A stretch of DNA of 64,000 nucleotides, taken from the NCBI RefSeq assembly GCF_963921235.1, contig NC_086108.1, positions 71,488,001 to 71,552,000 of the forward strand. The letters are read 5' to 3'. The notes beneath the pieces are model-generated. The model did not search any database and was not told where the DNA came from. It saw only the letters and a list, made by a program, of their open reading frames with translations. Origin of the DNA: Mobula hypostoma. Lineage: Eukaryota. The position numbers and the translations under genes are program-made. Shown one piece after another: positions 13,861-61,274 of the stretch (position 1 is the first letter of the stretch; each line of letters opens with the position of its first letter).

Positions 13861-14310
13861 CAACACACACAAAATGCTGGAGGAACTCAGCAGACCAGGC
13901 ATCATCAATGGAAAAAAGTACAGTCGACGTTTCGGGCTGAAACCTTTTAGCAGGACTGGAGAAAAAGGCTGAGGAGTAGATTTGAGAGGTGGGGGGAGGG
14001 GAGAGAGAAACACCAGACAATAGGCGAAACTTGGAGGAGAAGGAGGAGGAGGAGGAGCAGTAGTAGTAATAGTAGTAGAGGGGGAGGGATGAAGCAAAGT
14101 GCTGGGAAGTTGATTGGTGAAAGAGGCAGAAGGCCTTGGAAGAAAGAAGAAAGGTGGGGGGTGGGGTGGAGAACCAGAGGAGGCGATGGGGCCTTTTCGG
14201 CCTGAAACGTCGACTGTACTTTTTTCCATAGGTGCTGCCTGGCCTGCTGAGTTCCTCCAGCATTTTGTGTGTGTTGCTCGGATTTCCAGCATCTGCAGGT
14301 TTTCTCTTGC
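13861..14310. mobile_element. Penelope-derived fold-back element with inverted pLTR copies
   Basis: About 80-bp inverted arms (13861-13940 and 14195-14276). The flanking near-TSD is TATGAATGAACAAAA (13846-13860) and TATGAAAGAACAGAA (14312-14326). Confidence 0.85.
13921..13958 (-). ncRNA. Degenerate minimal type-I hammerhead ribozyme motif (Penelope pLTR)
   Basis: The minus strand reads CAGTC-CTGCTAA-AAGG tttcag CCC-GAAAC-GTC-GACTG. Stem I is intact but the CUGANGA core is mutated. Confidence 0.6.
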
Positions 14311-15084
14311 TTATGAAAGAACAGAAAATGGTTTTGACACCTATTCAGTTATCAAATGCAAACAACAGTGTTGGTCTTAAATCCCCCCTATTTGGTCCTA
14401 ATCACTATTGTCTCGCTTCCCTTTCAGTTGAGGGGTTAAAAGTCCTAATCAAGTTAGAAAGCTTCTTCTTGCTGGATGAAGAGCAAGCTCACAGGGCCAC
14501 GGTAAAAATACAATTCATCTGTGTCACTGACCGTTTACGTCCAAGCTGCTTAATGACAGCCTATCAGTCAGTAGTTGGAACTAGTTACCGTGACTCACTC
14601 CTATTCAGAGGTGCCCACTCTTCCTTTTGGCAAGCTGAAATGTCTGGCAATGCATTGACATGATGGATCAGACAAATTATTGCACAGGACTAGTGGAACT
14701 GTGCTTATGGTTAAACCATTAGCTGCTTGTGGATGATTACGGAACAAACTGAAAAATGAATTGGAATATGAGGTATGACACATATGGCACAGCATGAAAT
14801 AAGATAGCTTGGCACAAAGAGAAAGGATACAAATTTGAAAAGAATGGATGGAATTCACTAGGTAAATAAAACACTATCCAAAATGAAGCCTGTATTTTTA
14901 CTCCCTGTGGCTGAAAGAATTCTGGCAAATCATGGCATAAGCTTCTTCTAGACCTAGAAAAAGGTTCTGAGATGATGATTTGTATATGATATTATGGCAA
15001 TGGAATGCAGACAAATAAAGTTCAGCAGAAAATGACCTATAACGAGTACGCTTGCTCAAAGTAGTACCTAAGAATACTTAAACG

Positions 15085-15190
15085 CAGCATCTCAGCCCTG
15101 ATAAAGGGTCTCAGTCCGAACCATCAACTCTTTTCCACAGATGCTGCCTGCCCTGCTGAGTTCCTCCAGTATTTTGTATCTGCTGCATCT
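15085..15190 (+). mobile_element. Penelope pLTR fragment with degenerate hammerhead
   Basis: cagccctgataaagggtctcagtccgaacc...gatgctgcctgccctgctgagttcctccag. Confidence 0.7.
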
Positions 15191-15571
15191 ATATATTAAA
15201 CAGGAATATGTTGAAAGCATCTTCGAGTGGCTGGTCTGAATTTAATGGGGTAGGAAACAATGTTCTCAATGTTTCTAGTTCAGGAGTCATGTTGTGAACG
15301 ATTGCTAATTAACCTTCCTTCTGCTGAGGTTTCCTGAATTTGGTTTCAGCTGTGCAGTGCGGAGACAGTAAACTGGCATCTCATTCTCAGAATGCAGGAA
15401 AATGTTTCTGAAGATTATAATAATTCAGCAGGGAGTGTTCAATTGTTAACTGCAATCCATAGTAAACATTGCAATAAATATCACCACAGAAGCCAATCAT
15501 TTGGCCTATGAAGATTTGGCAGCATTATTCTCCACTTGAGCTACATAGTCAAACCCGGTTCCTGAACTTTG

Positions 15572-16665
15572 GGACAGCATGGTAGTGTAGTGGTTAGCAC
15601 AATGATTTACAGTACAGGCGACCCAGGTTCAATTCCCACTCCTATCTGTAAGGAGTTTGTATTGTTCTCCCTGTGACAGTATGGGTTTCCTCCCACAGTC
15701 CAAAGATGTTAATTGGTCGTTGTAAATTTTCCCATGATTAGTCATAGTCATAATCATAGTCATACTTTATTGATCCCGAGGGAAATTGGTTTTTGTTACA
15801 GTTGCACCATAAATAATTAAATACTAATAAAACCATAAATAATTAAATAGTAAAATGTAAATTATGCCAGGAAATAGGTCCAGGACGAGCCTATTGGCTC
15901 AGGGTGTCTGACCCTCCAAGGGAGGAGTTGTGAAGTTTGATGGCCACAGGCAGGAATGACTTCCTATGACGCTCTGTGTTGCATCTCGGTGGAATGAGTC
16001 TCTGGCTGAATGTACTCCTGTGCCCACCCAGTACATTATGTAGTGGATGGGAGACATTGACCAAGATAGCATGCAACTTGGACAGCATCCTCTTTTCAGA
16101 CGTCACTGTCAGAGAGTTCAGTTCCATCCCCACAATATCACTGGCCTTGCGAATGAGTTTGTTGATTCTGTTGGTGTCTGCTACCCTCAGCCTGCTGCCC
16201 CAGCACACAACAGCAAACATGATCGCACTGACCACCACAGACTCATAGAACATCCTCAGCATCATCCGACAGATGTTAAAGGACCTCAGTCTCCTCGGGA
16301 AATAGAGATGGCTCTGACCCTTCTTGTAGACAGCCTCAGTGTTCTTTGACCAGTTCAGTTTATTGTCAATTCGTATCCCCAGGTATTTGTAATCCTTCAC
16401 CATGTCCACACTGACCCCCTGGATGGAAACAGGGGTCACCGGTACCTTAGCTCTCCTCAGGTCTACCACCAGCTCCTTAGTCTTTTTCACATTAAGCTGC
16501 AGATAATTCTGCTCACACCATGTGGCAAAGTTTCCTACCGTAGCCCTGTACTCAGCCTAGGCCAGGATTAAATTGGGGAATTGCTGGGTGGTGTGGCTCA
16601 AAGGGCCGGAAGGACCATCTCCACATTGTGCCTCAATAAATAAACATTTAAATAAATAAATAAAC
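15572..16665 (+). mobile_element. V-SINE (HE1-like) split by a young Rex1; parts at 15572-15740 and 16559-16665
   Basis: A box tggtagtgtagtgg, B box ggttcaattccc, V-domain tgtaaggagtttgt...cctcccacagtccaaaga and a (TAAA)n tail. Confidence 0.82.
15741..16558 (-). mobile_element. Young Rex1/Babar 3' fragment
   Basis: ORF 15891..16490 is nearly identical to the C-terminus of ORF 34540..36099. (GACTAT)n tail. Confidence 0.95.
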
Positions 16666-17734
16666 AACTTTTCATTGTTTACTTGAGCAGCATCTCATAC
16701 AGGTGATGAATTTACCAACACCAACTTCACGCATTTGATTGCAGAGCATGCTGAGAGAGGCCTAACTCGGAATTAATTGCTTGCTTGGCTGGAGAATATT
16801 GAATGTTGCGTAGGTGACATAAAGAGGAGAACTGAAGAAGGAATAATATACACAGATATGAACACAAAACATGTAAAATCAGAATAGCAACAAAAAACTT
16901 CATGCTTTGTGCTCTTTTCTCTGTTTCTTGGACATCATTGGTTGTTTTAGCTTAAGCTTTTACCTTGCACACTGTTTATGTCCTAAAGAGCAGAGCACTT
17001 CTGTGCGAGATTCATATTAGTGTGCCTGACCTTTTCCTAGCAGTAAGTGTGCTCCTAATGACGCTATTTAGATCCCAATCAAAATGACAAATATAGATCC
17101 CATTGTTCCTCTTTGCAGACTATTTAAGTCTCATTATAATTGTAAAAGCTGTTTTACTTTTTTTGCAATAAATTACTTTAGGAATATTCCACTCTACTTT
17201 TCACATCAGAGAATTCAATGTTTGATTAAAAATGGTTGCTTAACAACCAGAGGCATTGAACATATCTCCGTCAAAAAAAAATTCCAGTCTGCTATATCCT
17301 GTCAATGAAGTTTCTTATTGAAAACTCTGCGAAGCACCTTCCTTCAGCATGTTTCATCGCACAATGGCATTTCCTTCCCAGCTGAAGCATTAATGATGTG
17401 GGTTGAAAGTGTCAATGAAGTCCTGAAATGTTAACTGCATGTACATGGATGGATAGACTCCCAAGACAAAAAGGTATGCAGAAAGTTAGCAAGTACTAAT
17501 GAATGTCAGATCTCTGCCTCCACTAGCAGAGCTGCGAACTGCAACATCCCATTGCGCACAGGCCTTCAGTTTGAGAAGCCACATGTGGCATGAAATTAAA
17601 ATGTTTCTTTGAGAAACTTTAAAAGACTCAACATGCCTACAACACATTGCCAAACAATTACATAAAGAATAATATTTCTGTATTGCTTTTTTAGATTAAA
17701 AATCATACAGTTTGAATGGGAAGATACATTTCAA

Positions 17735-18255
17735 GGTTATTAAGTCTGCAGATGGCACAAAAATAGGTGATGCAGCAGAGAGTGGAAAAGTTTATCAAAA
17801 TCTGCCGGGTGATCTTGATCAGCTAGGTAAGTGGGTTGAAGAACGGACATGGTATTCAATCCAGATGTGTGCAAGGTGTTGCATTTTGGGAAGTCAGACC
17901 TGGGCAGGATGCAAACAGAAGAGTAATGCAGAACGGAGGGACCTAGCAGTTCAAGTACATGGTCCTCTGAAAGGGGCGCCATAGATAGACAGGGTGATAA
18001 AGAAGGTGTCTGGCCTGCTGGCCTTCATCAGGCAGGACATTGGGCACAGGAGGTAGGACATTACACTGCAGTTTCTCTATGTTGGTGATGCTCCACCTGC
18101 AATAACGTGTACAGTTTTGGTCAGCCTTTAATAGGAAAGATGTCATTAAGCTGGAAAGATTGCAAAGACGACTTAGGGAACTTTGGCAGGATTCAAGAGC
18201 TTGAGCTATCGGAGAGGTTGGGCAGGCTAGGGCTGCACTTATTGGAGCAATGGAG
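17735..18255 (+). mobile_element. Old CR1 RT/C-terminal fragment
   Basis: KSADGTKIG..DLDQLGKW, a degenerate FADDTKIG, followed by VQFWS. Confidence 0.8.
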
Positions 18256-18487
18256 TACAGTGTACACTGCTTCGAGCCTCATTTAATGATCAATCTCATA
18301 GCAGAGGTTATTTTGTTCCACCCCACCTTCCCTTTTTAATCTCTTTCTATTTCATTGGAAAGCTCTGTAAACAGGAAGGTAAGCTGCAATTTCAGTATCA
18401 CTTTTTAATCTATATTTCCATAGTACTTCTGAATTCCCTCCTCCAAGTGATTATTGTTGCCTTAAGCTTATCAACCCTATAGATTCT

Positions 18488-19370
18488 AAGTTCAAAGTTC
18501 AAACTAAATATGTTATTAAAGTACCTACACATTAGCATATACTGCACTGAGATTACTTTTCTTGCAGGCACTTACAAGGAAAAAAATACGACAGAATTTT
18601 ACAAAAAATACTACACATAAACAGACAAAGACTGGCAAACATCAACTGTGGTGTGCATTAATAAGACAAACTGTGCAAGTAAAATTAATACTGAGTACAT
18701 GAGATGCAAAGAATCTGTAGGCTGTAGAATCTGTTTAGAATAGTTGTGAATTAAATTATCCATACCAGTTCAAGAGCCTAATGGTTCTAGAGCGATAGTG
18801 TGGGACCGAAGTCTCTGTACCTCCTACCCCAAATTAGTAGTGATAAGAAGGATGGATAGTGGAGGTCTTCGATGATGCTAGCTGCTTTCTTGTGGCAGCA
18901 CTCCATGTAAATGTACTCAGTAGTGGGGAGGGTTTCATCTGTGATGGACTGAGCTGTGTCCACCACTTTCTGTAATCTTTGCCATTCACGGGCATTAGTG
19001 CTTCCATACCAGGCCAAAATGAAATCAGTGTGCATCTTCAGAAGTCTGTCAACGTTTTTGGTGAAAAGCTAAAACTGCACAAACCTCTAACTAGTGGCGC
19101 TGTTCTGCCTTCTTTCCGATGAGACTAATGGGCAGGTCCCAGGACAGATCTTCTGCTATGTCGACGCCAAAAACCGTAAACCTACTGATCTTCTCTACCT
19201 CGAATCCCCTAATGAGGACTGACTCATGGACCTCCAGCTTCTTGTAGCTCTATCGTTCCAGGAAGAACCAGCTCTATGGTTTTGATGGCTTTGAGTGAGA
19301 GGTTGTTGTTGTGGTGCCACTCCACAAGATTTTCAATGCCCATTCATCACCAGCTTGATTTGACTACCAC
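18488..19370 (-). mobile_element. Old Rex1/Babar 3' fragment
   Basis: ORF 18787..19035 contains AWYG..RLQKVVDTAQSIT..KKAASII. Reversed (TTTGAAC)n tail at 18488. Confidence 0.8.
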
Positions 19371-20794
19371 CAGGTTACACTTCGGTACATACAGGCAGAT
19401 TTCTTCTTTGAATCCACATTTGCTCTTCTGTTCTGCATTATATTATCCACATGGTGCTCTCCTCATTATTAACTATTCTTCCTGGTATTTAATGAATGAT
19501 TTATAAAAATATTCTCCACCCATGTCAACAATATACTGCCAATATTTTTCAATAACATAGACAGACATGTCCACACAGTTACATTCCTCACTGTTACCAT
19601 GACACATCATTTGCATTTATGCTGATGACTTGGTCAGTGGACACTATTACAAAAGATTTAGTACCCTTAGTTATTAGAAGTTAAAAAAAGGACATCTTAA
19701 TTGTTTAGATGTTATCAATACTACTTAAAACGCCCGACCTCCTTCTGTGAAACTTTCTTCTTTCCTGCTCTCTACTTTTACTTTTCAATATGTAACTATT
19801 TCATGAAAATTTTGGTAACTTGTTCCAAAAACTCTTTAGTGTCTTTTGCCTTTATTTTTTACATTTTTGTTTTTAAAGCTGTTGTAAAACAACCCACTGA
19901 GCTGAAGGTGGTTTATGTTTTTTCTCTCTTCACATGGCTGGGAAAAGTATTCTCATCAGCCTTTACCAGAAGCTATCCCTCTTTTTTTCACTCTTTAAGA
20001 TGAATTGTTTTGCTTGGCTAAGTGTTTAAGAAATAAAATGTCCATTTCTAACTTGTTTCAGTTTTAGTTTTGGATTTTTTAAAAAACACTAGATGTTAAT
20101 TTCTGTAGCCAAAAATTTTGTTCCAACCGCAAGATATGGTAACATATGTCAGTAAAACATTCTTTCCTGATAAGTGTGACAACAAATTGAAAGCTAAAGT
20201 TTTCATGCAGATGAAATCTAGAGATTCAATGATTGAGTAAGTTTGTATTTATCTCAACAACAGCTTCAAATAGAAGGCTCTGCACGAAACTGAATTTTTA
20301 AAAAGGAACAAGGAACCGCTAGATGGACTGACTAAATGACAATCAACAGATTCAAATATTTGGCACATACATAGCTGTCCTTGAACATCTCCCAGTTGCA
20401 GTTCTCTCTGAAGATGAAACATCTATGGATTTTTTCACTTGTCTATTTCACAATGTTAAATTCTGTTGGAATACAACCAAAACATTAGGGCACTTCAGTA
20501 TTTGCATTTTAGTTCCATTGATTTTACCTATTTATTTCTCAGTTTTAATATCAAACTCTTACTTGTAGACTTTATATTGTGCAATATTTAAATAGTTGTT
20601 TGGTTTTACTTTTGCATTCTGTTTAAATATTTAAAATATAGGAACAGCACAAAGTCAATTCACATGCTTCATTATGTAGGGGATTTTAATGACCATGTTT
20701 TGAAACAGTGATTTAAATAGTATAACAATCTCTTCTTCAGGGTGTTGATACAATGTTCTGGAGTTTTCTCTGTCTTATTTTCTAGTGACAGTTT

Positions 20795-28050: not shown

Positions 28051-28181
28051 ACAGGGACTGACCATTTTCATACTTCTGCATTGTTATAGAAATCAACAGG
28101 TCAACAGTAAGACTGAAGTTTATGGTAACCAGCTATTAAATATAACAAGGTACTGCTGAATGTTATTCCAGGTATGTTATT

Positions 28182-29600
28182 CCGGGGAATTATAGACCGG
28201 TTAGCCTAACGTCGGTGGTGGGGAAACTGCTGGAGTCAGTTATCAAGGATGTGATAACAGCACATTTGGAAATCGGTGAAATCATCGGACGAAGTCAGCA
28301 TGGATTTGTGAAAGGAAAATCATGTCTGACGAATCTCATAGAATTTTTTGAGGATGTAACTAGTAGAGTGGATAGGGGAGAACCAGTAGATGTGGTATAT
28401 TTGGATTTTCAAAAGGCTTTTGACAAGGTCCCACACAGGAGATTAGTGTGCAAACTTAAAGCACACGGTATTGGGGGTAAGGTATTGATGTGGATAGAGA
28501 ATTGGTTAGCAGACAGGAAGCAAAGAGTGGGAATAAACGGGACCTTTTCAGAATGGCAGGCAGTGTCTAGTGGGGTACCGCAAGGCTCAGTGCTGGGACC
28601 CCAGTTGTTTACAATATATATTACTGACTTGGATTTGGGAATTAAATGCAGCATCTCCAAGTTTGTGGATGACACGAAGGTGGGTGGCAGTGTTAGCAGT
28701 GAGGAGGATGCTAAGAGGATGCAGGGTGACTTGGATAGGTTGGGTGAGTGGGCAAATTCATGGCAGATGCAATTTAATGTGGATAAATGTGAAGTTATCC
28801 ACTTTGGTGGCAAAAATAGGAAAACAGATTATTATCTGAATGGTGGCCGATTAGGAAAAGGGGAGGTGCAACGAGACCTGGGTGTCATTATACACCAGTC
28901 ATTGAAAGTGGGCATGCAGGTACAGCAGGCGGTGAAAAAGGCGAATGGTATGCTGTCATTTATAGCGAGAGGATACGAGTACAGGAGCAGGGAGGTACTA
29001 CTGCAGTTGTACAAGGCCTTGGTGAGACCACACCTGGAGTATTGTGTGCAGTTTTGGTCCCCTAATCTGAGGAAAGACATCCTTGCCATAGAGGGAGTAC
29101 AAAGAAGGTTCACCAGATTGATTCCTGGGATGGCAGGTCTTTCATATGAAGAAAGACTGGATGAACTGGGCTTGTACTCGTTGGAATTTAGAAGATTGAG
29201 GGGGGATCTGATTGAAACGTATAAAATCCTAAAGGGATTGGACAGGCTAGATGCAGGAAGATTGTTCCCGATGTTGGGGAAGTCCAGAACGAGGGGTCAC
29301 AGTTTGAGGATAAAGGGGAAGCCTTTTAGGACCAAGATTAGGAAAAACTTCTTCACACAGAGAGTGGTGAATCTGTGGAATTCTCTGCCACAGGAAACAG
29401 TTGAGGCCAGTTCATTGGCTATATTTAAGAGGGAGTTAGATATGGCCCTTGTGGCTACGGGGATCAGGGGGTATGGAAGGAAGGCTGGTGAAGGGTTCTG
29501 AGTTGGATGATCAGCCATGATCATAATAAATGGCGGTGCAGGCTCGAAGGGCCGAATGGCCTACTCCTGCACCTATTTTCTATGTTTCTATGTTTCTATG
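28182..29600 (+). mobile_element. Young CR1 LINE, 5'-truncated, with an open RT frame
   Basis: It begins at PGNYRPVSLTS and ends with a (TTTCTATG)n tail. It is near-identical to 53823-54811. Confidence 0.97.
28215..29501 (+). CDS. CR1 ORF2 reverse transcriptase plus C-terminal domain (428 aa, truncated copy)
   Basis: QHGFVKGKSC, YLDFQKAFDKV, GVPQGSVLGP, FVDDTK and HLEYCVQFWSP. Confidence 0.9.
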   Translation: MVGKLLESVIKDVITAHLEIGEIIGRSQHGFVKGKSCLTNLIEFFEDVTSRVDRGEPVDVVYLDFQKAFDKVPHRRLVCKLKAHGIGGKVLMWIENWLADRKQRVGINGTFSEWQAVSSGVPQGSVLGPQLFTIYITDLDLGIKCSISKFVDDTKVGGSVSSEEDAKRMQGDLDRLGEWANSWQMQFNVDKCEVIHFGGKNRKTDYYLNGGRLGKGEVQRDLGVIIHQSLKVGMQVQQAVKKANGMLSFIARGYEYRSREVLLQLYKALVRPHLEYCVQFWSPNLRKDILAIEGVQRRFTRLIPGMAGLSYEERLDELGLYSLEFRRLRGDLIETYKILKGLDRLDAGRLFPMLGKSRTRGHSLRIKGKPFRTKIRKNFFTQRVVNLWNSLPQETVEASSLAIFKRELDMALVATGIRGYGRKAGEGF

Positions 29601-29917
29601 TAATAAAATTCATATATAATATTCATACTGAAAAGGGGGGCTAATTATTGCCCTAACATCTGCAATGTTTTTATTTTGGATATAATTACATGATAAATGT
29701 CAGTTTCAAGTTTCAAATCAAAATTACAGCACTAAACACAAAGGATTACTTCCAGAACATTTGGTGTCTTAATTTGTATTTTGCAATTGCTGTGAGAAAA
29801 ATATTAACTCCATTTCTGTATTATTCAGAACCTTTCAGGTCTGCACGCATAGAAAAGGAGCATTCGTGCTCATACAGCAGACAAAATGCAAAATACAGCA
29901 CATGCCAACAATCCGAA

Positions 29918-30067
29918 TTAAAGGAAAATAGAAAATATTGGAAACCCTCAGAGAGTCAGACAGTACCTTTGAAGAGTAAAACAAGAGACTTTTGATCTGA
30001 AATACTAAAGCTGCCTTCTGAGTGCCTTAACAGCTGAGTGCTTCCAGCATTTCTTGTTTTTATTCCG
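29918..30067. mobile_element. Old fold-back element related to the Penelope pLTR family
   Basis: Imperfect inverted ends (aaatagaaaatattggaaaccctcag and ctgagtgcttccagcatttcttgttt) with internal gatctgaaa. Confidence 0.45.
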
Positions 30068-30540
30068 AAGCCTGGCCTCAACTGGGTTTCAGAATATTGT
30101 TTTCCAGCGTTCCCTGCATATTAAAGCTGTGTCCAAAGAGCCAGGCCTATTATCAGTCCATCAGAAGATTGACTCAGTCAGATTATTTAAACTGAAGACA
30201 TTTCAAATGAGGTCTTTTGTTTTTACAGGTGTATTTGGTGATATGAAGTTTGATTCAAATTCTTCCTAATAAATAGGTATGGCTCTCAGAAATGCTCACT
30301 CTTGTACTGTGATTTCTACAGGGAAGAGTCAAATCAGCTTTCAATGAACATGATCTATTGGAACTCGTCAAACTAGTTTGTGAGGCCCAGCAGATGGTAT
30401 GGGTCTCTGAAAATTTTAACCTTTTAGGAGTTAGGGCTAATTCTGATCACAAATTTCATTGCCATCATTGACAGAGCAATGTACTCTGTTAAGCAGACTT
30501 AGGCATGATCAGTGCTTGGGAAGGAGACCACTGTAAGTGC

Positions 30541-32485: not shown

Positions 32486-33796
32486 GTTGTTACTGTAATT
32501 AAATGGACAGGTAGAAGCACCAGTCAGGGGAATATACAAATGCCACCTAAATTAACTGTCAAGCAGCGCATTCATGAAGAGGTTTTAGCCATTGTGAATA
32601 ATAATTTAAGAACAATAGTTTAAGAATAATATTCAGTCGGGGTTTTAATGAGGTTTGTCTAATATTCTGACAGTTTAATCTATGCACCCATAACTAATAT
32701 GCACATTAATCCTGGCAACTTATTGATAGTACTTTTATGCAACGTTGCTGTGCTGTCCACAATTCAGTCACATACTTTTGAATTTCATCTTGCGAATCAG
32801 GTAGTGACTTACTTATTACAATAGTGAGTATTGGGAGAGACTGGCAGCTGAAGAAGACAACAACCTACGTGCTAGAGACTGGGCTGAGTTTCTTGCCAAA
32901 GGAGATTTGTCGTAGCAGAGGAAAGAAAGGAACTGAATTCATACCAGGGTGTTCATATCAGTAGCACCGCCAATTTTACTCATTTATATCATTGCATCAG
33001 CCACTTACAAATTAGCTTGCAATGGTTTACTTTCAGTTACAATGGTAAGACTTATGTAGCAGTGGGCTTGATAAACAGCTGAAAATCTCTGTATAAGCTA
33101 TGCTTGCAGGTATCACATATTCAGAAAGGATGTCAGTTTTTGGTGAAATAGCAAGGTAGATAGGAAGAAGTTATTCACCAAAGCTGCCCGAGGTCAACAA
33201 CCTCACTGGACTGCCAAGGGGCATTAGACTGGATGTGACACTAAGCTACAGCCATGTGCCGTACGTTGGAGTGGTAAAATAGCAAGGTGGCTCCCTGCTC
33301 TACATTCTTCATCTGTCTACTCCTAGGAACTAGAAGCAGGCAGAAACATATGCAAAATGTCTAGGCTCTTGTGCTCACAAGTAGTGTTTCCTTTTTTAAA
33401 TTCAATTTCCAGGATGAAGGCTTCATCCAGGATGAATGCAAGACCAGCATTTCTTGCCCATCTCTTCCTGCTCTGATGAGATGCATTCTGGAACCACTGC
33501 TTTAACACAGAGCCTGTCCACAACTGAATGGTTTTCTGTGCTGTTTCAGGGTAGTGAAGAGTAACCCAGAATGATATGGGCTAGCAGCAAATTTCATAGC
33601 ATCATGGTGCGACGTGGGACAAAGCAGACTTTTTGTCCCTATGTCCCACTGAGCCTATGCTGACATCACCCAGCTGTCCTTACACTTACAGCACCCAAAC
33701 ACATTACTGAGAATAGGTGTATGTTTTAAAACGCGGATGGCCTAATTAACTGAATTCAAATTTCATAGCTGTTGTGGGCCGACTTCAACTCATAAG

Positions 33797-33900
33797 AAGT
33801 CTGTAGATGCTGGAAATCCAAAGTAACACACAAAAAATGCTGGAGGAACTCAGCAAGTCAGGAGTTGAAGAGGGGTCGTGGCCCGAAACATTGACTGTTC
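33797..33900. mobile_element. Penelope-derived short element
   Basis: gatgctggaaatccaaagtaacacacaaaaaatgctggaggaactcagc joined to gaagaggggtcgtggcccgaaacattgactg. Confidence 0.75.
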
Positions 33901-34187
33901 AATAGTTCAATAGTTCCACTTAATACCAGAGAAACTAGACAATTTCCAACCTGAAATCCTTGCTCTTCACAGATCCAGGAAAACAGAAGGGTACCCCAAA
34001 GAATGAATGAAAGTAACAACGTTAAACCCCAAAGTCCCTTCTCCCTCCTCCCACGCACAAGCAGCAGCAAAGTACAAAACCCTCCCCCTCCCCCACTTAC
34101 CTCAGCAAAAAAGCATCAGCACCCACAACCCACCAGCAAGCAATAACAAAGCCCCCAAGAAAGACCATGATCTGCAGTACAACAAAG

Positions 34188-34320
34188 ACTGCAGATGCGA
34201 GAAATCTTAAGCAACAGACACAAAAAGCTGGAGGAACTCAGCAGGTCAGGATCTGATGAAGGGTCTTGGCCCAAAACGTTGACTCTATTTCCCTCCATAG
34301 ATGCTGCCTGAGCTGCAGAG
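34188..34320. mobile_element. Penelope-derived short fold-back element
   Basis: gctggaggaactcagcaggtcagg, then ctgatgaagggtcttggcccaaaacgttgact, then gatgctgcctga. Confidence 0.78.
34253..34284 (+). ncRNA. Hammerhead ribozyme-like motif with an intact CUGAUGA core
   Basis: CTGATGA-A-GGG tcttgg CCC-AAAAC-GTT-GACT. G12 is changed to A and the 5' strand of stem I is altered. Confidence 0.6.
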
Positions 34321-34419
34321 CCTGTACTTCCTCAGGAGTTTGCGAAGATTCAGCATGACATCTATAACTTTGACCGACTTCTATAGATTTATCATAGAGA
34401 CTGCATTGACTGGCTGTAT

Positions 34420-36251
34420 GAGAGAGGTCTGGAGTGGGATGAGGACCATCACTGGGTTCTGACAGACTAGCAACAGAGGAGCTGAAGGCAGTGTGGACAG
34501 GCCAACAAAATTAACCTGTTCTTTAACAGATTTGACATTGTGGCCCCTGCCCATCCCCCACATGAATCATCTGTTGTCGGCCCCCAACCAACACATATTC
34601 CACTCTCCCCTCCTACCCCTTCTCACAGTCCCCCACCCTGCTCTCATGACTATACCCCTTGCCCACACGAAACCACCACAGTGGGCTTCACAGCTCTACA
34701 GGTGAGAAGGCAGCTGAAATGTCTCAATCCAAGCAAGGCTGCAGGACCGGATGGTGTCAGTACCAGGGTGCTCAAAGCCTGTGCACCTCAGCTATTTGGA
34801 GTACTTCGCCATGTATTCAACCTGAGCCTGAGGCTCCGGAGGGTTCCTGTTCGGTGGAAGACGTCCTGCCTCGTCTCTGTGCCGAAGACGCCGCGCCCCA
34901 GCGGCCTCAATGACTACAGACCGGTGGCATTGACCTCCCACATCATGAAGACCCTGGAGAGACTTGTTCTGGAGCTGCTCCGGCCTATGGTCAGGTCACA
35001 CTTAGATCCCCTCCAGTTCGCCTACCAGCCCCGACTAGGAGTTGAGGATGCCATTGTCTACCTGCTGAACCGTGTCTACGCCCACCTGGACAAGCCAGCG
35101 AGCACTGTGAGGGTCTTGTTTTTTGACTTCTCCAGTGCGTTCAACACCATCCACCCTGCTCTGCTGGGGGAGAAGCTGACAGCGATGCAGGTGGATGCTT
35201 TCCTGGTGTCATGGATTCTTGATTACCTGACTGGCAGACCACAGTACATGTGCTTGCAACACTGTGTGTCAGACAGAGTGATCAGCAGCACTGGGGCTCC
35301 ACAGGGGACTGTCTTGTCTCCCTTTCTCTTCACCATTTACACCTCGGATTTCAACTACTGCACAGAGTCTTGTCACCTTCAGAAGTTTTCTGATAAATCT
35401 GCCATAGTTGGATGCATCAGCAAGGGAGATGAGGCTGAGTGCAGGGCTACAGTAGGAAACTTTGTTACATGGTGTGAGCAGAATTATCTGCAGCTTAATG
35501 TGAAAAAGACTAAGGAGCTGGTGGTAGACCTGAGGAGGGCTAAGGCACCGGTGACTCCTGTTTCCATCCAGGGGGTCAATGTGGACATGGTGGAGGGTTA
35601 CAAATACCTGGGGATACGAATTGACAATAATCTGGACTGGTCAAAGAACACTGAGGCTGTCTACAAGAAGGGTCAGAGCCCTCTCTATTTCCTGAGGAGA
35701 CTGAGGTCCTTTAACATCTGCCGGACGATGCTGAGTATGATCTACGAGTCTGTGGTGGCCAGTGCGATCATGTTTGCTGTTGTGTGCTGGGGCAGCAGGC
35801 TGAGGGTAGCAGACACCAAAAGAATCAACAAACTCTTTCGTAAGGCCAGTGATGTTGTGGGGATGGAACTGGACTCTCTGACGGTGGCGTCTGGAAAGAG
35901 GATGCTGTCCAAGTTGCATGCCATCTTGGACAATGTCTCCCATCCACTACATAATGGACTGGTTGGGCACAGGAGTACATTTAGCCAGAGACTCATTCCA
36001 CCGAGATGCAACACAGAGCGTCATAGGAAGTCATTCCTGCCTGTGGCCATCAAACTTTACAACTCCTCCTTTGGAGGGTCAGACACCCTGAGCCAATAGG
36101 CTGGTACTGGACTTATTTCCTGGCATAATTTACATATTACTATTTAATTATTTATGGTTTTATTACTATGTAATTATTTATGATGCAACTGTAACAAAAA
36201 CCAATTTCCCCCGGGATCAATAAAGTATGACTATGATTATGACTATGACGA
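34420..36251 (+). mobile_element. Young Rex1/Babar LINE, 5'-truncated, inserted into an older Rex1 (34320-34419 plus 36252-36786)
   Basis: Long ORF with a (GACTAT)n tail. Possible TSD TGTAT at 34415-34419 and 36252-36256, and the host sequence resumes on both sides. Confidence 0.95.
34540..36099 (+). CDS. Rex1/Babar reverse transcriptase (519 aa; catalytic FSDD altered to FSDK)
   Basis: KAAGPDG, NDYRPVALTS, DPLQFAY, FFDFSSAFNTI, GAPQGTVLSP and KFSDK. Confidence 0.9.
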   Translation: MAPAHPPHESSVVGPQPTHIPLSPPTPSHSPPPCSHDYTPCPHETTTVGFTALQVRRQLKCLNPSKAAGPDGVSTRVLKACAPQLFGVLRHVFNLSLRLRRVPVRWKTSCLVSVPKTPRPSGLNDYRPVALTSHIMKTLERLVLELLRPMVRSHLDPLQFAYQPRLGVEDAIVYLLNRVYAHLDKPASTVRVLFFDFSSAFNTIHPALLGEKLTAMQVDAFLVSWILDYLTGRPQYMCLQHCVSDRVISSTGAPQGTVLSPFLFTIYTSDFNYCTESCHLQKFSDKSAIVGCISKGDEAECRATVGNFVTWCEQNYLQLNVKKTKELVVDLRRAKAPVTPVSIQGVNVDMVEGYKYLGIRIDNNLDWSKNTEAVYKKGQSPLYFLRRLRSFNICRTMLSMIYESVVASAIMFAVVCWGSRLRVADTKRINKLFRKASDVVGMELDSLTVASGKRMLSKLHAILDNVSHPLHNGLVGHRSTFSQRLIPPRCNTERHRKSFLPVAIKLYNSSFGGSDTLSQ

Positions 36252-39200: not shown

Positions 39201-39398
39201 TTGTTTGCAGTGATAACTGGCCACAATTTACTTCAGAAGTTTAGTGATCCTGGAGGTCGAGTCAGCAGACATCGAGGAAACCAACAATTCCCAGGTTGGC
39301 AAGTCCCTGACTGGAGGTCTGTATAGGTGGGAGTCACAAAGGTCAGTGACCCCACCTTCCATGTCACTGGTATTGGAGGTATGTGTGAATCTTGAAGT

Positions 39399-39755
39399 TC
39401 AAACCTGTGACTGGTGTGTACAATGGTTGAGGCCTGAGTGTTAAACCCATGATCAATGAGTCCTGGAGCTGTTGTCCTGGTCAAACCTGTGACTGGCAAG
39501 TCCTATGGACGAGGCCTGAGGGTTAAACCCATGATCAGTGAGTCCTGGAGCCGCTGTCCTGGGGCCAAAAGGTCAAACCTGTGACTGGCGAGTCCTATGG
39601 ATGAGGCCTGAGGGTTAAACCCATGATCAGTGAGTCCTAGGGTTGAGGCTCGAAGGTCAGACCTATGACTGGCGAGTCCTATGGATGAAGCCTGAGGGTT
39701 AATCTCATGATCAATGAGTCCTGGGGTTGAGGGTCAAAGGTCAGACTGGTGATTG
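39399..39755. repeat. Minisatellite, about 4.2 copies of an 82-92 bp unit
   Basis: Units start tcaaacctgtgactgg or tcagacctatgactgg at 39399, 39481, 39573 and 39657. Each contains gaggcctgagggttaaacccatgatcagtgagtcct or a close variant. Confidence 0.92.
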
Positions 39756-50677: not shown

Positions 50678-51000
50678 AAACAAGCGAAAATCTGCAGAAA
50701 TTCGAGCAACACACACAAAATTCTGGAGGAACTCAGCAGGCCAGGCAGCATCTCTGGAAAAAAGTACAGTCGACATTTCGGGCCAAAACCTTTTGGCAGG
50801 ACTGGAGAAAAAAAGATGAGGAATAAATTTGAAAGGTGGGGGGAGGCGGACGATAGGTGAAATGGAGGGGGAGGAATGAAGCAAAGAGCTGAAGAAGTTG
50901 ATAGGTGAAAGAGACAGAAGGCCATGGAGATTAAAAAAAGGGGGTTGGGGAGGGAGCACCAGAGGGAAACGATGGTGGGCATGGACATAACATGAGAGAG
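50678..51000 (-). mobile_element. Penelope pLTR fragment with a degenerate hammerhead at 50767-50804
   Basis: The minus strand reads CAGTC-CTGCCAA-AAGG ttttgg CCC-GAAAT-GTC-GACTG. It is similar to 13861-14190. Confidence 0.82.
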
Positions 51001-53822: not shown

Positions 53823-54811
53823 TTTACAATATATATTAATGACTTAGACGAGGGAATTAAATACAGCATCTCCAAGTTTGTGGATGACATGAAGCTGGGC
53901 GGCAGTGTTAGCTGTGAGGAGGATGCTAAGAGGATGCAGGGTGACTTGGATAGGTTGGGTGAGTGGGCAAATTCATGGCAGATGCAATTTAATGTGGATA
54001 AATATGAGGTTATCCACTTTGGTGGCAAGAACAGGAAAACAGATTATTATCTGAATGGTGGCCAATTAGGAAAAGGGGAGGTGCAACGAGACCTGGGTGT
54101 CATTATACACCAGTCATTGAAAGTGGGCATGCAGGTACAGCAGGCAGTGAAAAAGGCGAATGGTATGCTGGCATTTATAGCAAGAGGATTCGAGTACAGG
54201 AGCAGGGAGGTACTACTGCAGTTGTACAAGGCCTTGGTGAGACCACACCTGGAGTATTGTGTGCAGTTTTGGTCCCCTAATCTGAGGAAAGACATCCTTG
54301 CCATAGACGGAGTACAAAGAAGGTTCACCAGATTGATTCCTGGGATGGCAGGACTTTCATATGAGGAAAGACTGGATTGACTAGGCTTATACTCTCTGGA
54401 ATTTAGAGGATTGAGGGGGATCTGATTGAAACATATAAATTTCTAAAGGGATTGGACAGGCTAGATGCAGGAAGATTGTTCCTGATGTTGGGGAAGTCCA
54501 GAACGAGGGGTCACAGTTTGAGGATAAAGGGGAAGCCTTTTAGGACCGAGATGAGGAAAAACTTCTTCACACAGAGAGTGGTGAATCTGTGGAATTCTCT
54601 GCTACAGAAAACAGTTGAGGCCAGTTTATTGGCTATATTTAAGAGGGAGTTAGATATGGCCCTTGTGACTAAAGGGATCGGGGGTATGGAGAGAAGGCAG
54701 GTACAGGGTTCTGAGTTGGATGATCAGCCATGATCGTACTGAATGGCGGTGCAGGTTCAAAGGGCTGAATGGCCTACTTCTGCACCTATTTTCTATGATT
54801 CTATGTTTCTA
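53823..54811 (+). mobile_element. Young CR1 3' fragment, sibling of 28182-29600
   Basis: ORFs 53880..54380 and 54452..54733 are nearly identical to the corresponding parts of ORF 28215..29501. Confidence 0.95.
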
Positions 54812-54883
54812 AATGAAAGTCTGTTGGGTCACAATATTTCCATTAAATCATGGTGAATTCAAACCCATTTAAACTCCTTAGGT

Positions 54884-55076
54884 AACACACATAAAAGTTG
54901 CTGGTGAACGCAGCAGGCCAGGCAGCATCTCTAAGAAGAGGTACAGTCGACGTCTCGGCCCGAAACGTCGACTGTACCTCCTCCTATAGATGCTGCCTGG
55001 CCTACTGCGTTCACCAGCAACTTTTATGTGTGTTGCTTGAAATTCCAGCATCTGCAGATTTTCTTGTGTTTGCATT
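54884..55076. mobile_element. 193-bp Penelope-derived hairpin element with a 16-bp TSD
   Basis: About 75-bp inverted arms (54884-54958 and 54960-55034). TSD TTTAAACTCCTTAGGT at 54868-54883 and 55077-55092. Confidence 0.92.
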
Positions 55077-55479
55077 TTTAAACTCCTTAGGTGATACTTT
55101 ACATTTTGTAGTTAATGATTTCTGAAGATAATAAAGTAAATGATACTGTGGCTCAATAGCACTCTGGTAGATAATCCCCATAATCCTCATTTTCATGACA
55201 AAAAGATGAGAACTGTCAAAATCACTCTTTGGAAAAAAACTCATCCCTCACAATCTGGCAATAATCCAGCAGTCTCACAGTGGGACACATGATTAGAGAG
55301 TGTAGGAGATGGACGATTAAAGCTTAATATAACTTAAAATGTTGGCATTGTGGAACAGTGACCATTGCATCTATGGAGGAGATCGATGTCTAATTTGCAG
55401 TTTTTAAGGCTAAAATCATTCCTACATCTTTTTGGTGCAACAGTGATCTTTTGTCTCCCTCACCATCCATCATATGAAA

Positions 55480-55650
55480 TCCTCCTTTTCATTCTTTCCT
55501 TCTCATCCTTCTGTCCAGGTAAAGGGTCTTGGCTCAAAACTCTGGATGTCAGTTTCCCTCCACGGATGCTGCCTGACCAGCTGAGTTCCTCCAGGAGCTT
55601 TTTGTTGTTCCACATTCCAGCGCCTGCAATCTCTTCCGACTTTGTTTTCC
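55480..55650 (+). mobile_element. Old Penelope pLTR fragment
   Basis: aaagggtcttggctcaaaac..gatgctgcctgaccagctgagttcctccagg..ccagcgcctgca. Confidence 0.7.
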
Positions 55651-57141
55651 CATAATCATTGGAACTACCAACCCAGCAGTGTTATGGAAATATCTTCACC
55701 AGGAAGACTGTAGCTTTTCCTGAGGTGACGTGTGACTGATTCTTCATGAGCAGTGAGGGACACACAAAAAAGGCTGTCATAGCAGGGAACACATGCATTA
55801 CAAAAACACTATACAAGTTAAATAGAAGGCTTCCCAGACTTTGAAGCTTAGTAGAGTATTGCAGGCATTCAACCACACTTAAAATTCAGGAAGGAAATGA
55901 GGAAAAGTGGTGAGGGTAAATTTACGGGCGAGTTTGCTCGTGTCTGTTTTCCTCACTATTGTAGCACCACAGAGGTTCAGCAGAAATGCTAACCTGGCTC
56001 ATCAACATGATTTCTACTGAAGTTAAAGCATCATAGCATCAAGAAATTCTCCTCCAATACACCATCACAGCTGAGCTTATCAACCACCTCTGTGGTGGAA
56101 GTGTATCCCAGTAGATACTCAAACTAGGAACTCGATATGATCAGGAAATAACAAGTGATGAGGTATGTTGGTTTCAGGTATTTCATCACTTTAGGGATTA
56201 TCTTTACAGAAAGTGAAATTGAGTTTTAAAATAGATTTATATGTGGTGAAACACACACTTATTACAGTTTCCTATCAACAGCTCCCAAATCTGAACCCAG
56301 AGGGCTGATTTATCTCGAACAAAAGTCATTGAATTTATCAAAAGTGGGAATTAGAATCAACACTGGAATAAATTGTACATCTGAAATGCTTCTGGCTTGT
56401 TTCTGTAGAGGCATAAACTGTCCTGGGATGAGACCTCCACCTGTAAGGTTTCTGGGATTAACTTGGTGTTCCTGCCTGTGTTTGCACCATCCCAGTTTTC
56501 CCTGTCAGTGCTTGCCCAGCCCCTGAGTTCAGTGATGATTTCTGTGACCTTTGCCTGCACTGGGACCAGGAACACATATGCTTCTACAGCAACTTTAAGA
56601 GTCCGCAGTGCCGAACTTCATTTTGAAAGGCAGAGAGAAATTAGTTAATGTGAAGGTATTTCTGAGGTGCCTCATTAGTCATCGTTCACCACACTGCCCC
56701 AACATGTTACGCATTCCAATGTGGAATAGGTAGACCGGTTTCCAAGCAGAACATGGGGAGGCGATCCTACTCTGCGTATGCATGCTGGAACAGGTCCTCT
56801 CCAGCTTATGAACACCTGACCTATGTACAAATTATACACACGAACAAGTGTTCAGGAGACCTGAGGGATGAGTCGCTGTTTGCTCCAGGTGACTATTTTT
56901 GACACTCGCTGGAATTTTTCCACATCAAACATCATCTGCACTGAATCAGACAATGAACTACAGAGTTAATGAGGGATTCAGAGGGCTCAACTCTTTACAC
57001 AGTAAATAGTTTTAAGCTGGAATACACTGGATATTCAGTGACAAGCAATAGACCATAAAGTGATATAGCACTGGCTTTACACTCTTCCTGTACTAAGGCA
57101 ACCAGGATACATCTAGTGCAGTTTAACTGAAGTTTTATGTA

Positions 57142-59342
57142 GTTCAAGTTCAAAAGATTCAAAGTAAATTTATTATCAAAGTACTTATATATCACCAAAT
57201 ACAACCCTGAGATTATTTTTCTTGCAGGCATACTCAATAAATCGAATAACCATAATAGAATCAATGAAAGACTGCACCAAAAGGGCAGATGCCCAGTGTG
57301 CAAAAGACAACAACTATGCAAATACAAACAGAAAGAGAAAAAATAATAATATGTATTTCTGATAAGAAGTATACACCACTAAATTTAAATGAGAGCACAA
57401 CCCAGAAAAATGAAGACATTATCACTATTGAAGAGAAGGTTAACCAATGGAAGAGCATGATCCTCCATGCAAGATATCCCCACGATCTGAGCGCACTAGG
57501 TGTCGACAAGGAAGTGTCAAATGCCTGGCTCAGAGTTGGAGACCTCTTCCTAGAAACAGAACGGTTCCTTGTGGCAGTACAGGGTCAGGTGGTTAATACA
57601 AAAATGCTGAACACATAATCAAAAATACATAATAAAAGATAAGCAAATTCAAGATGATAAATGTAGAAAATGCCAAGGAAAACCTGAAACAATCCAGCAC
57701 CTCAGTTTAGCACAATTTGATTACCTACTCAGGCACACTCAAGTGGCAAACATTATTCACCAAAATCTTGCTTTAAAATACAAACTCATAGAATAATTCA
57801 AACCTTACTGTAAATACAAGCCTGATCCAGTTTTAGAGTCAGAATATAACAAATTATATTACAACTAATTAGTTATTACAGATATGACAATCCATAATAA
57901 TCATTCGGATATAATAATACAGGATAAACAAGCAAGAACAACTTACTTAATAGACACAGCCATTCCAAACACATATAGCTTACAGAACTCAATAAGTGAA
58001 AAATGCCAGAAATACGCCGAATTAAAAGAGGAAATTGAAAGACTTTGGAACAGGAACAGGATATACATTAACCCGATAGTAATATCTACAGCTGGTATTA
58101 GCTTAAAGTCACTACACACTGGCATTAAACAATTAGGGCTGCACAGTAATATCTACGTAAATCTTCAGAAAGCCACAATACTGAACACCACTAGAAAGTT
58201 TCTATCAGTTGAGAAATGAGTGTGCTTGACCATGGGCATACCTCTGGTTTTACCTGCCTGTGGAAAAAATAAATGATAGTAGTAGTAATAGTAGTAGTAA
58301 TAATAATAATAATAATAAAAACAGCTAAATAATAAATATTGAGATGAAGAGTCCTTGGAAGTGAGTCTATAGGTTGTGGGAACAGTTCACTGATGGGGCG
58401 AGTGAAGTTGAGTGAAATTTTCCCCCTCTGTTTCAAGAGCCTGATGGTTGAGGGGTAATAACTGTTCCTGAACCTGGTGGTGTGAGTCCTAAGGCTCCTG
58501 TACCTTCTGCAGCAGTGAGAAGAGAGCATGACCTGGGTGGTGGGGGTCCTTGATGATGGACGCTCCTTTCCTGTGACCACTCTCTATGTGGATGTGCTCA
58601 CTGGTGGAGAGCCCCTTACCCATGATGGACTGGACAATTCAAGGGCATTGGTGTTTCCATACCAGGCTGTGATGCAACCCATCAGTACACTCTACACTAC
58701 ACATCTATACAAGTTTGTAAAAGTTTCAGAGGTCATACTGAATCTTCACAAACTCCTAAGGAAGTAAAGGCACTGTTGTGCTTTCATCGTAATAGCATTT
58801 ATGTGCTGGGCCCAGGACAGATCTTTCGAAATGATAGCACCAAGGAATTTAAAGTTGCTGACCCTCTCCAACTCCGCTCCCTCAATGAAGACTGGCTCAT
58901 GGGCCTCCAGTTTCCTCCTCCTGAACTCAATAATCAGCTCCTTGGACTTGCTGACACTAAGTGAGAGGTTGCTGCTGTGACACCACTCAGCCAGGTTTTC
59001 ATTCTCCCTCATATGCCAATTCATCACCAACTTTGATTCAGCCTCCAAAAGTGGTGTTGTCAACAAACAAACATGGCTTTGGAGCTGTGCTTAGCCTTGC
59101 AGTCATAAATGCAAAGCGAGTAGAACAGAGGGCTAGCACACAGCCTTGTGGTGCACCTGTGCTGATGGAGATTGTGGAGGAGATGTTGCCAATTCGAACT
59201 GACTGGAGTCTGCAAGTGAGGAAACCGAGGATCCAGTTGTACAAGGAGGTATTTGTGCTGAGATCTTGAAGCTTTTTGATTAGTCTTGAGGGGATGATAG
59301 TAGTGAATGCTGAGCTGTAGTTGATAAGAGGCATCCTGATGT
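57142..59342 (-). mobile_element. Rex1/Babar LINE (RT to tail) interrupted by an R4/Dong element
   Basis: ORF 59038..59361 contains [20 protein letters not shown] and ORF 58746..59066 contains FKFLG..LYFLRSL. The tail is at 57142. Confidence 0.88.
57351..58318 (+). mobile_element. R4/Dong-clade non-LTR retrotransposon 3' fragment (zinc knuckle plus restriction-like endonuclease)
   Basis: SNAWL..ETE.F..A.Q.Q; KCRKCQGKPETIQHL near 57660; HSDIIIQDK..LIDTAIP..EKCQKYAELKEEI..PIVIS. It ends in (TAG/TAA)n. Confidence 0.88.
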
Positions 59343-59985
59343 AGTTCAAGTTCAAGTACACGCTTAACTGCCATTCAACCGTACACGAGTACCCACGAAC
59401 TCAGCCAAACCAGACGGCATTACTCCAGGGCCGGGTGCAAAACACAGTACCTCCAGTCACACACACAGCACAAGGCACACATAGCGCATATAAGATATCA
59501 GTAAAATACAGTCACACAAAAAAAGATTGTATGTTCATGAATGTTGCAGACGTCTGCAGTCAAACACAATATCGCTTGCCTTCAGCTGCGCGAACACTGG
59601 GGCAGCATCGACTCCGGCTTAGACACCATGCTACGCCACCTCTGGTGGAGCGCGGTGACTCTGGTGCCTCTCTCCTGGGACCTGTAACAGGCGACACCAC
59701 GGCTTGAAGCCAAGTCCTTGTTATGATAGAGCCCACGCAGCTTCCCTGCTGTCGGCCAATAAATCAGTGAATTGGACTTGCAACGTTCCACATTAACAAA
59801 GTCCTACAGGGTCTTGCAATCACAGGGAAAGAGACTAAGATGATGACTCACTGTTGGACCTTCACCTTCAACACTGCCTTCGTGCACAGAGTCCTCTGAG
59901 GCCTCTCTGGCGCCAGCACCAGCACGATCCTCACCACGTCCGGCTCCGTCACTTTCTTTGCCAATGAGCAACTCACTGATGGGGT
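59343..59985 (-). mobile_element. Unclassified non-coding retroposon-like segment
   Basis: Reversed (TTGAAC)n tail at 59343 followed by a CpG-rich body. Confidence 0.4.
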
Positions 59986-60226
59986 AGGTCTACAGTACTT
60001 TATCGATTTCTGGTACTCCTGTGTGGTTCTTGTATATCGGTGAGACCCAATGTAGATTGGGAGACCGCTTCGCCAAGCACCTACCTCCGTCCGCCAGAAA
60101 AAGCATGATCTCCCAGTGGCCACCCATTTTAATTCCACTTTCCATTCCCATTCTGACATGTCCATCCATGGCCTCTTCTACTGTTATGATGATGCCACAT
60201 TCAGGTTGGAGCAGCACCTTATACTC

Positions 60227-60783
60227 TGTTGTAGTGTGGATGAAATCACCAGAGAGACAGAGTCACTGGTAGATACAAAGCAGCTTCTTTATTCGACACA
60301 ACAAGCAGGCATTAGGAGACTCTTTTTGTAGAAAGGTCTGCTAGCCCAATGTGGGCTCGATATTTATATGCTAAACACAAAGGCAATCGCTACTTACAAG
60401 GTTATAGACAATGCATAGACAACGCTTCGGATTGAAGCTACATACAAAATATCACACCTCCTAACTTCATCCTTTCCTTCTGACGCCAACATATCTGGGT
60501 TGGTATCCACAGCTTTAGGAATGCAATTAAATCCACAATACATTTATTTGGCATTTTACATGCTAACATAGAAGACAACTAATATTTATAATGTATAGAT
60601 AATATTGTCTTCGAAACTACAGCATCTAGTCAAACTACGGCGCCAGAATCATCTCGTATTCACACCTTTTTAGGAAGTGCATTGTTGTGGACTCAATCCA
60701 TGGTACTTTGTCAAATAGAAGTCTGGTGGCCAAAATCACTTATGTGTAAACAAATCATCTACCCAAAAAAATTCACTCTAACA
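60227..60783 (-). mobile_element. Solo LTR (557 bp)
   Basis: Termini TGTTGTAGTG...CACTCTAACA. Perfect 5-bp TSD TACTC at 60222-60226 and 60784-60788. The minus strand has TATAAATA near 60361, then AATAAA near 60288. Confidence 0.9.
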
Positions 60784-61117
60784 TACTCCATCTGGGTAGC
60801 CGCCAACCTAATGGCAGATACATCGATTTCTTGAATTTCTGGTAATGCCCCACCCACCCCTCCTTTCTCTATACCCTATTTCCATTTCCCTCTCACCTTA
60901 TCTTCTTGCCTGTCCATCACCTCCCTCTGGTGCTCCTTCCTTTTTTACTTTCTTCCATGGCCTTCTGCCCTCTCCTATCAGATTCCCCCTTCTCCAGCCC
61001 TGTATCTCTTTCACCAATCAACTTCCCAACTCTTTACTTCCCAGTTTTACCTATCACCTTGTGTTTCTTGCTCCCCTCCCCCCACCTTTTCACTCCCACT
61101 CCTCATCTTTTTTTCTC

Positions 61118-61155
61118 CAGTCCTGCTGTAGGGTCTTGACCCGAAACATTGACTG
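61118..61155 (+). ncRNA. Degenerate hammerhead motif in the Penelope pLTR
   Basis: CAGTC-CTGCTGT-A-GGG tcttga CCC-GAAAC-ATT-GACTG. Stems I and II are intact but the core is mutated. Confidence 0.6.
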
Positions 61156-61274
61156 TTTATCCTTTTCCATAGATGCTGCCTGGCCTCCTGAGTTCCTCTA
61201 GCGGTTTGTGTGTGTTACTTGGATTTCCAGCATCTGCAGATTTTTCCTTGTTTGTACTTCAAGTTTTTAATGTT

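Follow-up and report, generated by a model that had tools for sequence, protein, structure and literature searches.

Minimal type I hammerhead ribozymes on the ends of Penelope-like elements (PLEs), and dispersed, truncated copies of such ends, have been known since 2014. The stretch of DNA analysed here (64,000 nucleotides of the ray Mobula hypostoma, contig NC_086108.1, positions 71,488,001–71,552,000 of the forward strand; hereafter, the window) adds an example from a ray, in which every copy is mutated. The minimal hammerheads described in PLEs (PMC4209133) share with the window family their layout, their position in a terminal repeat, and their occurrence as dispersed, single, truncated copies, and some of them lie as pairs on opposite strands 100–700 bp apart, like the pairs in the window. 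Stem II is 4 bp long in the window family as opposed to 7–8 bp in the Schistosoma family (PMC4209133). Neither sharks and rays nor a core variant with C at position 6 (C6) were found in the consulted text of that paper, and sharks and rays are also absent from its second supplementary file. Starting from the observed motif layout, a physical link to a GIY-YIG endonuclease gene, a ladder of truncations, a 3′ tail, inversions, target duplications, and the decay of every copy, we conclude that the repeats in the window are very probably dead insertions, 5′-truncated and in part inverted, that derive from an abundant endonuclease-positive (EN+) PLE of the Neptune or Nematis type.

EN+ PLEs of the Neptune and Nematis clades are marked by a CX2-5CXXC linker together with a CXXC in the GIY-YIG domain (PMC8557442). 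Typical PLE insertions are 5′-truncated; they include inverted pseudo-long terminal repeats (pLTRs), joined head-to-head at palindromic junctions, as well as solo pLTRs, and may carry a tail of 30–40 bp (PMC8557442, PMC3846280). Described EN+ elements of these clades have in common with the window family the GIY-YIG domain and its CXXC, the linker (present in the ray homologues), truncation, inverted arms, tail, and target duplications, although the duplications measure 15–16 bp here versus 8–10 bp in the rotifer examples of these two papers, and the clade label, Neptune versus Nematis, is drawn from the cysteine marks rather than from a tree. By its testable sequence features, the window family belongs among the EN+ PLE ends that bear minimal hammerheads. 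A second point of comparison is the Anolis element Poseidon PAc, in which, as reported in PMC11167929, two start sites of reverse transcription produce the tail, targets are AT-rich, the hammerhead cleaves solely with the protein, insertion in vitro is unimpaired in hammerhead mutants, and none of the RNA-seq reads described end at the cut. The window family shares with PAc the two 3′ ends, the AT-rich targets, and a pLTR hammerhead whose cut does not mark the ends of copies. However, Poseidon is another clade, without the cysteine linker, and activity was measured in PAc, whereas only sequence is at hand for the ray.

Homologues of four window copies, used as queries, were sought across the window by blastn and nhmmer. 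This recovered 15 related segments at 10 loci, which together cover approximately 2.5 kb (4%) of the window. Related sequence was found at all nine places listed in the original prediction and also at a tenth (4921–4978, minus strand; blastn E 4e-10), absent from that list, which is a pLTR fragment with only the part downstream of the hammerhead. With the GAAA box as the alignment anchor, 12 segments hold the 3′ half of the motif and eight a collinear 5′ half. A very decayed pLTR trace at 29897–30090, possibly head-to-head (nhmmer E 0.05–0.3, blastn E 0.001), was left outside all segment and locus counts.

The link between these repeats and PLEs is carried by the copy at 59980–61253. It opens with the first part of a GIY-YIG endonuclease remnant (59980–60226, plus strand; 5′ edge approximate), 5′-truncated and frameshifted, which was located by tblastn with P0001, an uncharacterised M. 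hypostoma protein. P0001 residues 285–302 and 304–351 match this remnant at 79%–83% identity (E 3e-21), and residues 285–351 map to 60030–60226 with one frameshift. The translation of 60056–60226 is 79% identical to P0001 and 72%–74% identical to P0002 and P0003, which are uncharacterised Hypanus sabinus proteins according to their source names. Both P0001 and P0002 end in GIY-YIG (Pfam E 5e-4 and 2e-3, respectively, both below the gathering score), and both ray homologues examined for the cysteine marks (P0001 and P0002) contain a linker of the form CX4CXXC as well as a CXXC within the GIY-YIG core. The window remnant is truncated downstream of the linker region, and a Pfam search of its two short fragments gave no match. 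A 557-bp insert (60227–60783) interrupts the remnant; it has TG...CA ends, is bounded by a 5-bp duplication (60222–60226 and 60784–60788), and is taken here to resemble a solo LTR. Beyond it, the endonuclease coding sequence runs to its end at 60784–60845 (plus strand; P0001 residues 350–377 match 60783–60866, E 8e-5), with the stop codon at 60843–60845. Next comes a pyrimidine-rich 3′ untranslated region (UTR; 60846–61117, plus strand), common to the copies at 13861–14189 and 50678–50998 and at high depth in the sequencing runs considered below. The decayed hammerhead motif begins 272 nt downstream of the stop (61118–61155, plus strand), with C6, T9, and the stem III palindrome lost; its predicted cut is 61150/61151. 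The remaining pLTR and an approximately 37-nt tail (61156–61253, plus strand) form the 3′ end of the element, an end common to 6/15 segments. The copy at 61118 is, as originally predicted, joined to a GIY-YIG remnant, now seen to be interrupted.

Evidence on abundance came from contigs of 4 of 24 public sequencing runs, all from other organisms, in which the number of matching contigs per run was 63,485, 82,813, 7,665, and 9,609; summed depth over such contigs is not copy number. The GIY-YIG part, the UTR, and the pLTR each reached a summed depth of 1e5–1e6 in the two large runs, compared with 200–500 for the outer flanks; past approximately 61270, depth fell sharply (in run X19, from about 7e5 to about 2e2 beyond 61271). 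In those runs, the coding end is thus abundant alongside the terminal repeat, in terms of depth and not of copy number. The 557-bp insert is itself a repeat, but its summed depth was below that of the PLE parts in all four runs, and no contig joint bridging it was present among the 15 of 672 joints listed. At position 61129 (core position 9), where the window copy has T, A made up 89%–99% of summed depth in each of the four runs. Similarity to GIY-YIG proteins and depth in related fishes accordingly uphold the part of the original prediction that had called the family Penelope-derived and high-copy.

The ends of the segments follow a pattern described for PLEs. Counted from the predicted cut, 5′ ends fall at −261, −237, −107, approximately −90, −66, −37, −28, −20, −20, −18, −5, +28, +28, and +30, and the GIY-YIG copy starts at approximately −610, its insert excluded; the −5 start (minus arm at 54953) is partly set by the bound chosen within a palindrome. 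None of the 15 segments starts at the predicted cut, and cleavage does not set the ends of these insertions. The 3′ ends lie at +101 to +103 in six segments (reference, +103) and at +64 to +66 in three, with the six others elsewhere or decayed, and these two 3′ ends, some 37 nt apart, correspond to the PLE "tail". Head-to-head pairs occupy 5/10 loci, and in four of those five an arm starts within the hammerhead. Flanking duplications, both AT-rich, enclose the unit at 54884–55076 (a perfect 16/16 bp) and the unit at 13861–14312 (13/15, 13846–13860 and 14312–14326; null, 6 of 20,000). As aligned here, the 5′ truncation, inversions, tail, and duplications match the published structure of PLE insertions.

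Individual loci illustrate this architecture. The unit with the perfect duplication (54868–54883 and 55077–55092) is a complete small insertion (54868–55092), composed of an inverted arm without a tail (54884–54953) and a direct arm with one (54952–55076), joined within the hammerhead, with core positions 3–9 absent. Separately, 54884–55040 folds into a near-perfect hairpin of approximately 75 bp (z −20.6), which would be a source of double-stranded RNA if transcribed. At the second duplicated unit, segment searches and alignment identified an inverted arm of 3′ UTR, hammerhead, and pLTR without a tail (13861–14189, minus strand; hammerhead 13958–13921 with C6, A8, and A10.1), followed by a direct arm from the segment searches (14195–14312, plus strand) that begins within hammerhead stem-loop II and ends in the tail. 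An inverted tail-bearing arm is paired with a direct piece at two further loci. The one at 34181–34342 joins arm 34250–34181 to a direct arm that starts at core C3 (34253) and is the sole copy with core positions 3–9 intact, but it has A12 and is missing the 5′ strand of stem I. The one at 33797–33899 joins arm 33862–33797 to a short direct hammerhead piece (approximately 33860/33873–33899), whose apparent core is ambiguous, nine of its bases also matching the nearby flank in inverted orientation. These nine junction bases (33863–33871) are an inverted match to the left flank (33782–33790) as well as core-like, and possibly reflect microhomology at insertion. The remaining pair, at 7791–8062, is old: the core is deleted in its minus arm (7919–7791), and the motif of its plus arm (7935–8062) has four core mismatches (7971–8008). 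Among the unpaired copies, the one at 15084–15186 (plus strand; motif 15093–15130, with A8 and C15.1) is short, runs from the 5′ edge of the hammerhead, lacks the tail, and is preceded by a 9-nt inverted pLTR scrap. The copy at 50678–50998 (minus strand; hammerhead 50804–50767, with C6, A8, and A10.1) is 5′-truncated and comprises 3′ UTR, hammerhead, pLTR, and tail, and that at 55481–55647 (plus strand) is old and heavily decayed, with a tail and five core mismatches.

By layout, the motif fits the minimal type I hammerhead of PLE pLTRs, as the original prediction had proposed: a stem I of 5 bp, a stem II of 4 bp with G10.1–C11.1, an extra base after A9, and a loop-less palindromic stem III. 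Majority states are C3, U4, G5, and A9 (6–7 of the 8 core-covering copies) and G12, A13, A14, A15.1, U16.1, and a non-G at position 17 (10–12 of 12). Position 6 is A in three copies, C in three, and G and T in one each; position 8 is A in five and G in three. Columns 7–8 read CA (2), TA (3), TG (2), and AG (1), the pattern expected of a decayed CpG, and G8 is regained solely through a CpG-aware consensus. At stem III positions 15.2–16.2, C is present in 9/12 and G in 6/12 copies, with most others explained as CpG-type changes. The CpG-aware consensus passed a descriptor of the minimal hammerhead ribozyme (min-HHR) with no (A6) or one (C6) mismatch and the plain majority consensus with one or two, versus 0/20,000 consensus shuffles at up to two mismatches. 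No site in the window passed the descriptor with up to two mismatches allowed, and all eight core-covering copies carry 1–5 core mismatches, in agreement with the earlier statement that no copy has an intact core; the window copies are probably inert. Rfam returned three weak matches at E ≤ 5, none of them a hammerhead. Its hammerhead models presuppose a loop on stem III, and this miss was therefore not counted against the assignment. In three of four consensus versions, the minimum free energy fold of the monomer comprised stems I and II, and over the eight copies stem II was paired at 94% and stem I at 70%.

Enzymology, clade, and any activity are what we infer from these observations and the cited work. 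The autonomous element would carry a minimal type I hammerhead in its pLTR, approximately 270 nt past the GIY-YIG stop. Its protein would nick AT-rich DNA, and reverse transcription would begin at either of two 3′-end sites some 37 nt apart. Synthesis would usually abort within a few hundred bases, often in or beside the hammerhead hairpin, and fold-back or template switching at hairpins may generate the head-to-head arms. Because synthesis would begin only approximately 100 nt away from the hammerhead, the motif would ride as a passenger in most scraps and then decay neutrally. In the source element, the motif would probably cleave only weakly, either as a dimer or assisted by the protein.

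Several results weigh against the reading of these repeats as dead PLE insertions with a hammerhead. The strict-majority sequence of the window copies departs from the hammerhead core at positions 6 and 8. Covariation showed no excess among the eight decayed paralogues, 130–306 of 500 shuffles scoring as high, although decayed paralogues of this kind are not expected to covary. What the original prediction had offered as a by-eye hammerhead consensus holds in part: the type I layout, GAAA, and a CpG-aware fit of the core stood, whereas the core is not a strict majority at these two positions, G8 needs the CpG reading, and no stem covariation beyond that of shuffles was seen in the eight decayed copies. 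In ViennaRNA, the double-hammerhead dimer reached −19.9 kcal/mol versus −29.3 to −37.3 kcal/mol for competing duplexes; under this nearest-neighbour model, which leaves out tertiary contacts of the core, the predicted energies lend no support to efficient dimer cleavage. Target duplications were found at 2/10 loci, and none above chance at the other eight. Coding sequence is included at 1/10 loci. There is no full-length element or reverse transcriptase (RT) in the window, where tblastn detected neither PLE coding sequence beyond the endonuclease remnant nor a PLE RT, and the autonomous partner is represented by partial ray proteins only. Finally, 6/15 segments start within the interval −37 to −5; clustering of this kind could also result from a dedicated, short template RNA.

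This last result leads to the best-surviving alternative, namely a distinct non-autonomous family resembling short interspersed nuclear elements, derived from a PLE pLTR, whose short RNA would begin close to the 5′ side of the motif and depend on the PLE protein for mobilisation in trans. Three further starts at +28 to +30 and the 9/10 loci without coding sequence are also in its favour, and non-autonomous elements derived from pLTRs are known in Chlamys (PMC8557442) and have been proposed to exist in vertebrates (bioRxiv 2026.07.22.740005). However, the clustered starts are mostly inversion junctions rather than free 5′ ends, other copies extend upstream by anything from 66 to 610 nt and share no common boundary, and in the sequencing runs the pLTR is of similar abundance to the UTR and the GIY-YIG part (depth, not copy number). 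We consider such a family improbable.

The original prediction went further and inferred a distinct, non-autonomous, retrozyme-like family. Non-LTR retrozymes are non-coding, high-copy, PLE-related repeats with a type I hammerhead (PMC7229834; bioRxiv 10.64898/2026.07.22.740005), and the presence of such a motif within a dispersed high-copy repeat here, as well as tandem retrozymes in the one chondrichthyan sampled in that preprint, would be compatible with tandem, self-cleaving hammerhead units that retrotranspose in circularised form. In contrast to the head-to-tail units of approximately 170–400 nt and the circular RNA of retrozymes, the window copies vary in length and are paired head-to-head. 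None of 14 tandem-repeat rows reported for the window by Tandem Repeats Finder (TRF) overlaps a hammerhead copy, no segment starts at the cut, no permuted unit was found in the window, and the motif is of the minimal PLE type, which is distinguished from retrozyme hammerheads in PMC7229834. A true retrozyme is very unlikely, and we do not retain the retrozyme-like family either, since its copies lack a fixed 5′ end and extend into the endonuclease gene. That the hammerhead likeness is a coincidence or a meaningless relic in a merely hairpin-rich transposon end is scarcely credible: the failure of all copies in the descriptor, the lack of an Rfam hammerhead and of covariation, the need for CpG reconstruction at G8, and single-copy folds no better than those of shuffles (z −0.9 to −1.6) speak for it, but the reconstructed consensus passes with 0–2 core mismatches depending on version while shuffles do not, the PLE pLTR is the published location of the motif (PMC4209133), and related genomes read A9 almost throughout.

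Within the preferred reading, that of dead EN+ PLE insertions, the variation at core position 6 bears on how the source elements spread. C6 is found in three copies (13958, minus; 50804, minus; 61118, plus). The first two are 82/91 identical (90%) and have C6, A8, and A10.1 in common, whereas the third is 79%–80% identical to the other C6 copies and 78%–81% to the A6 copies. The suggestion that a CTGC core marks a subfamily therefore extends to two close relatives, the third copy being no closer to C6 than to A6 copies. The source element of the copies at 13958 and 50804 may have carried C6, A8, and A10.1, making them members of a ray PLE subfamily that amplified after its core was crippled; two copies are too few to establish this, and we regard it as possible but doubtful. 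The spread of a ribozyme-poor subfamily is suggested by the shared defects, if these were in the source, and would be consistent with the anole result. If true, ray genomes would constitute a natural in vivo experiment in which ribozyme cleavage is dispensable for PLE retrotransposition, and the hairpin would act mainly as a site of stalling and fold-back during reverse transcription, four of five inverted loci having junctions within the motif. As a natural hammerhead variant, A6C has been described as poorly active in Mg2+ but more active in Mn2+ (PMC3088659; PMC7151607). The A6C hammerhead of phage Bcep176 described there has the same core C6 as 3/8 window copies; however, it is a single active phage ribozyme, whereas the C6 copies in the window carry further defects and are known from sequence alone.

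The excess of A over G at position 8 (5/8 copies) was also considered as selection against active copies (P 0.008 at the CpG rate of the window, 0.11 at a rate of 0.35). This reading was not accepted because it is post hoc, concerns one of 11 positions, and draws on five copies of which two are close relatives. A8 in 5/8 copies does exceed the background TG-to-TA rate, and is explicable by an ancestral CpG at positions 7–8 together with kinship, though three copies need two steps.

A literature search, with subscription journals, Repbase, and Dfam largely outside its reach, returned no paper that deals specifically with this motif in PLEs of sharks or rays, the exception being a preprint of 2026 that counts tandem hammerhead repeats in one chondrichthyan (bioRxiv 10.64898/2026.07.22.740005). 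Given the high copy number, core variants per subfamily and 5′ ends relative to the cut could be used to test the role of the PLE ribozyme in vivo. Outside collections contributed little. An 18-base motif from the window had 13 hits in a metagenome collection, all 13 without flanking likeness and rejected as chance, and none in viral contigs. A 24-base pLTR motif had no hits in either a genome contig collection or a viral contig collection. Searches for the A6/C6 ratio by way of spurious translations of the motif returned nothing in word-based searches and two hits with HMMER, both unrelated repeat proteins. With P0002 as the query, none of 66 candidates was borne out in the genome contig collection, and among viral contigs one of six gave a weak match (IMG/VR contig L014, 3001–3129; 30% identity over 43 residues, E 5e-4).

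Other mobile elements share the window. A 451-aa open RT frame at 28146–29501 (Pfam RVT_1, E 3e-32) has a partial second copy, 95% identical, 25 kb away at 53823–54811, indicative of a young family of long interspersed nuclear elements (LINEs). A 537-aa open RT frame at 34486–36099 (RVT_1 and ALKBH8_N) likewise has an 818-nt inverted copy at 15741–16558, also 95% identical, and points to another young LINE family. A 131-aa open frame on the minus strand (63123–63518) with a hydrophobic, cysteine-containing stretch had no Pfam match and might include an exon. A minisatellite with a 42/84-bp period (approximately four copies of the 84-bp unit) lies at 39395–39743, and the sequence at approximately 61660–62100 resembles a remnant of a hAT-type DNA transposon.

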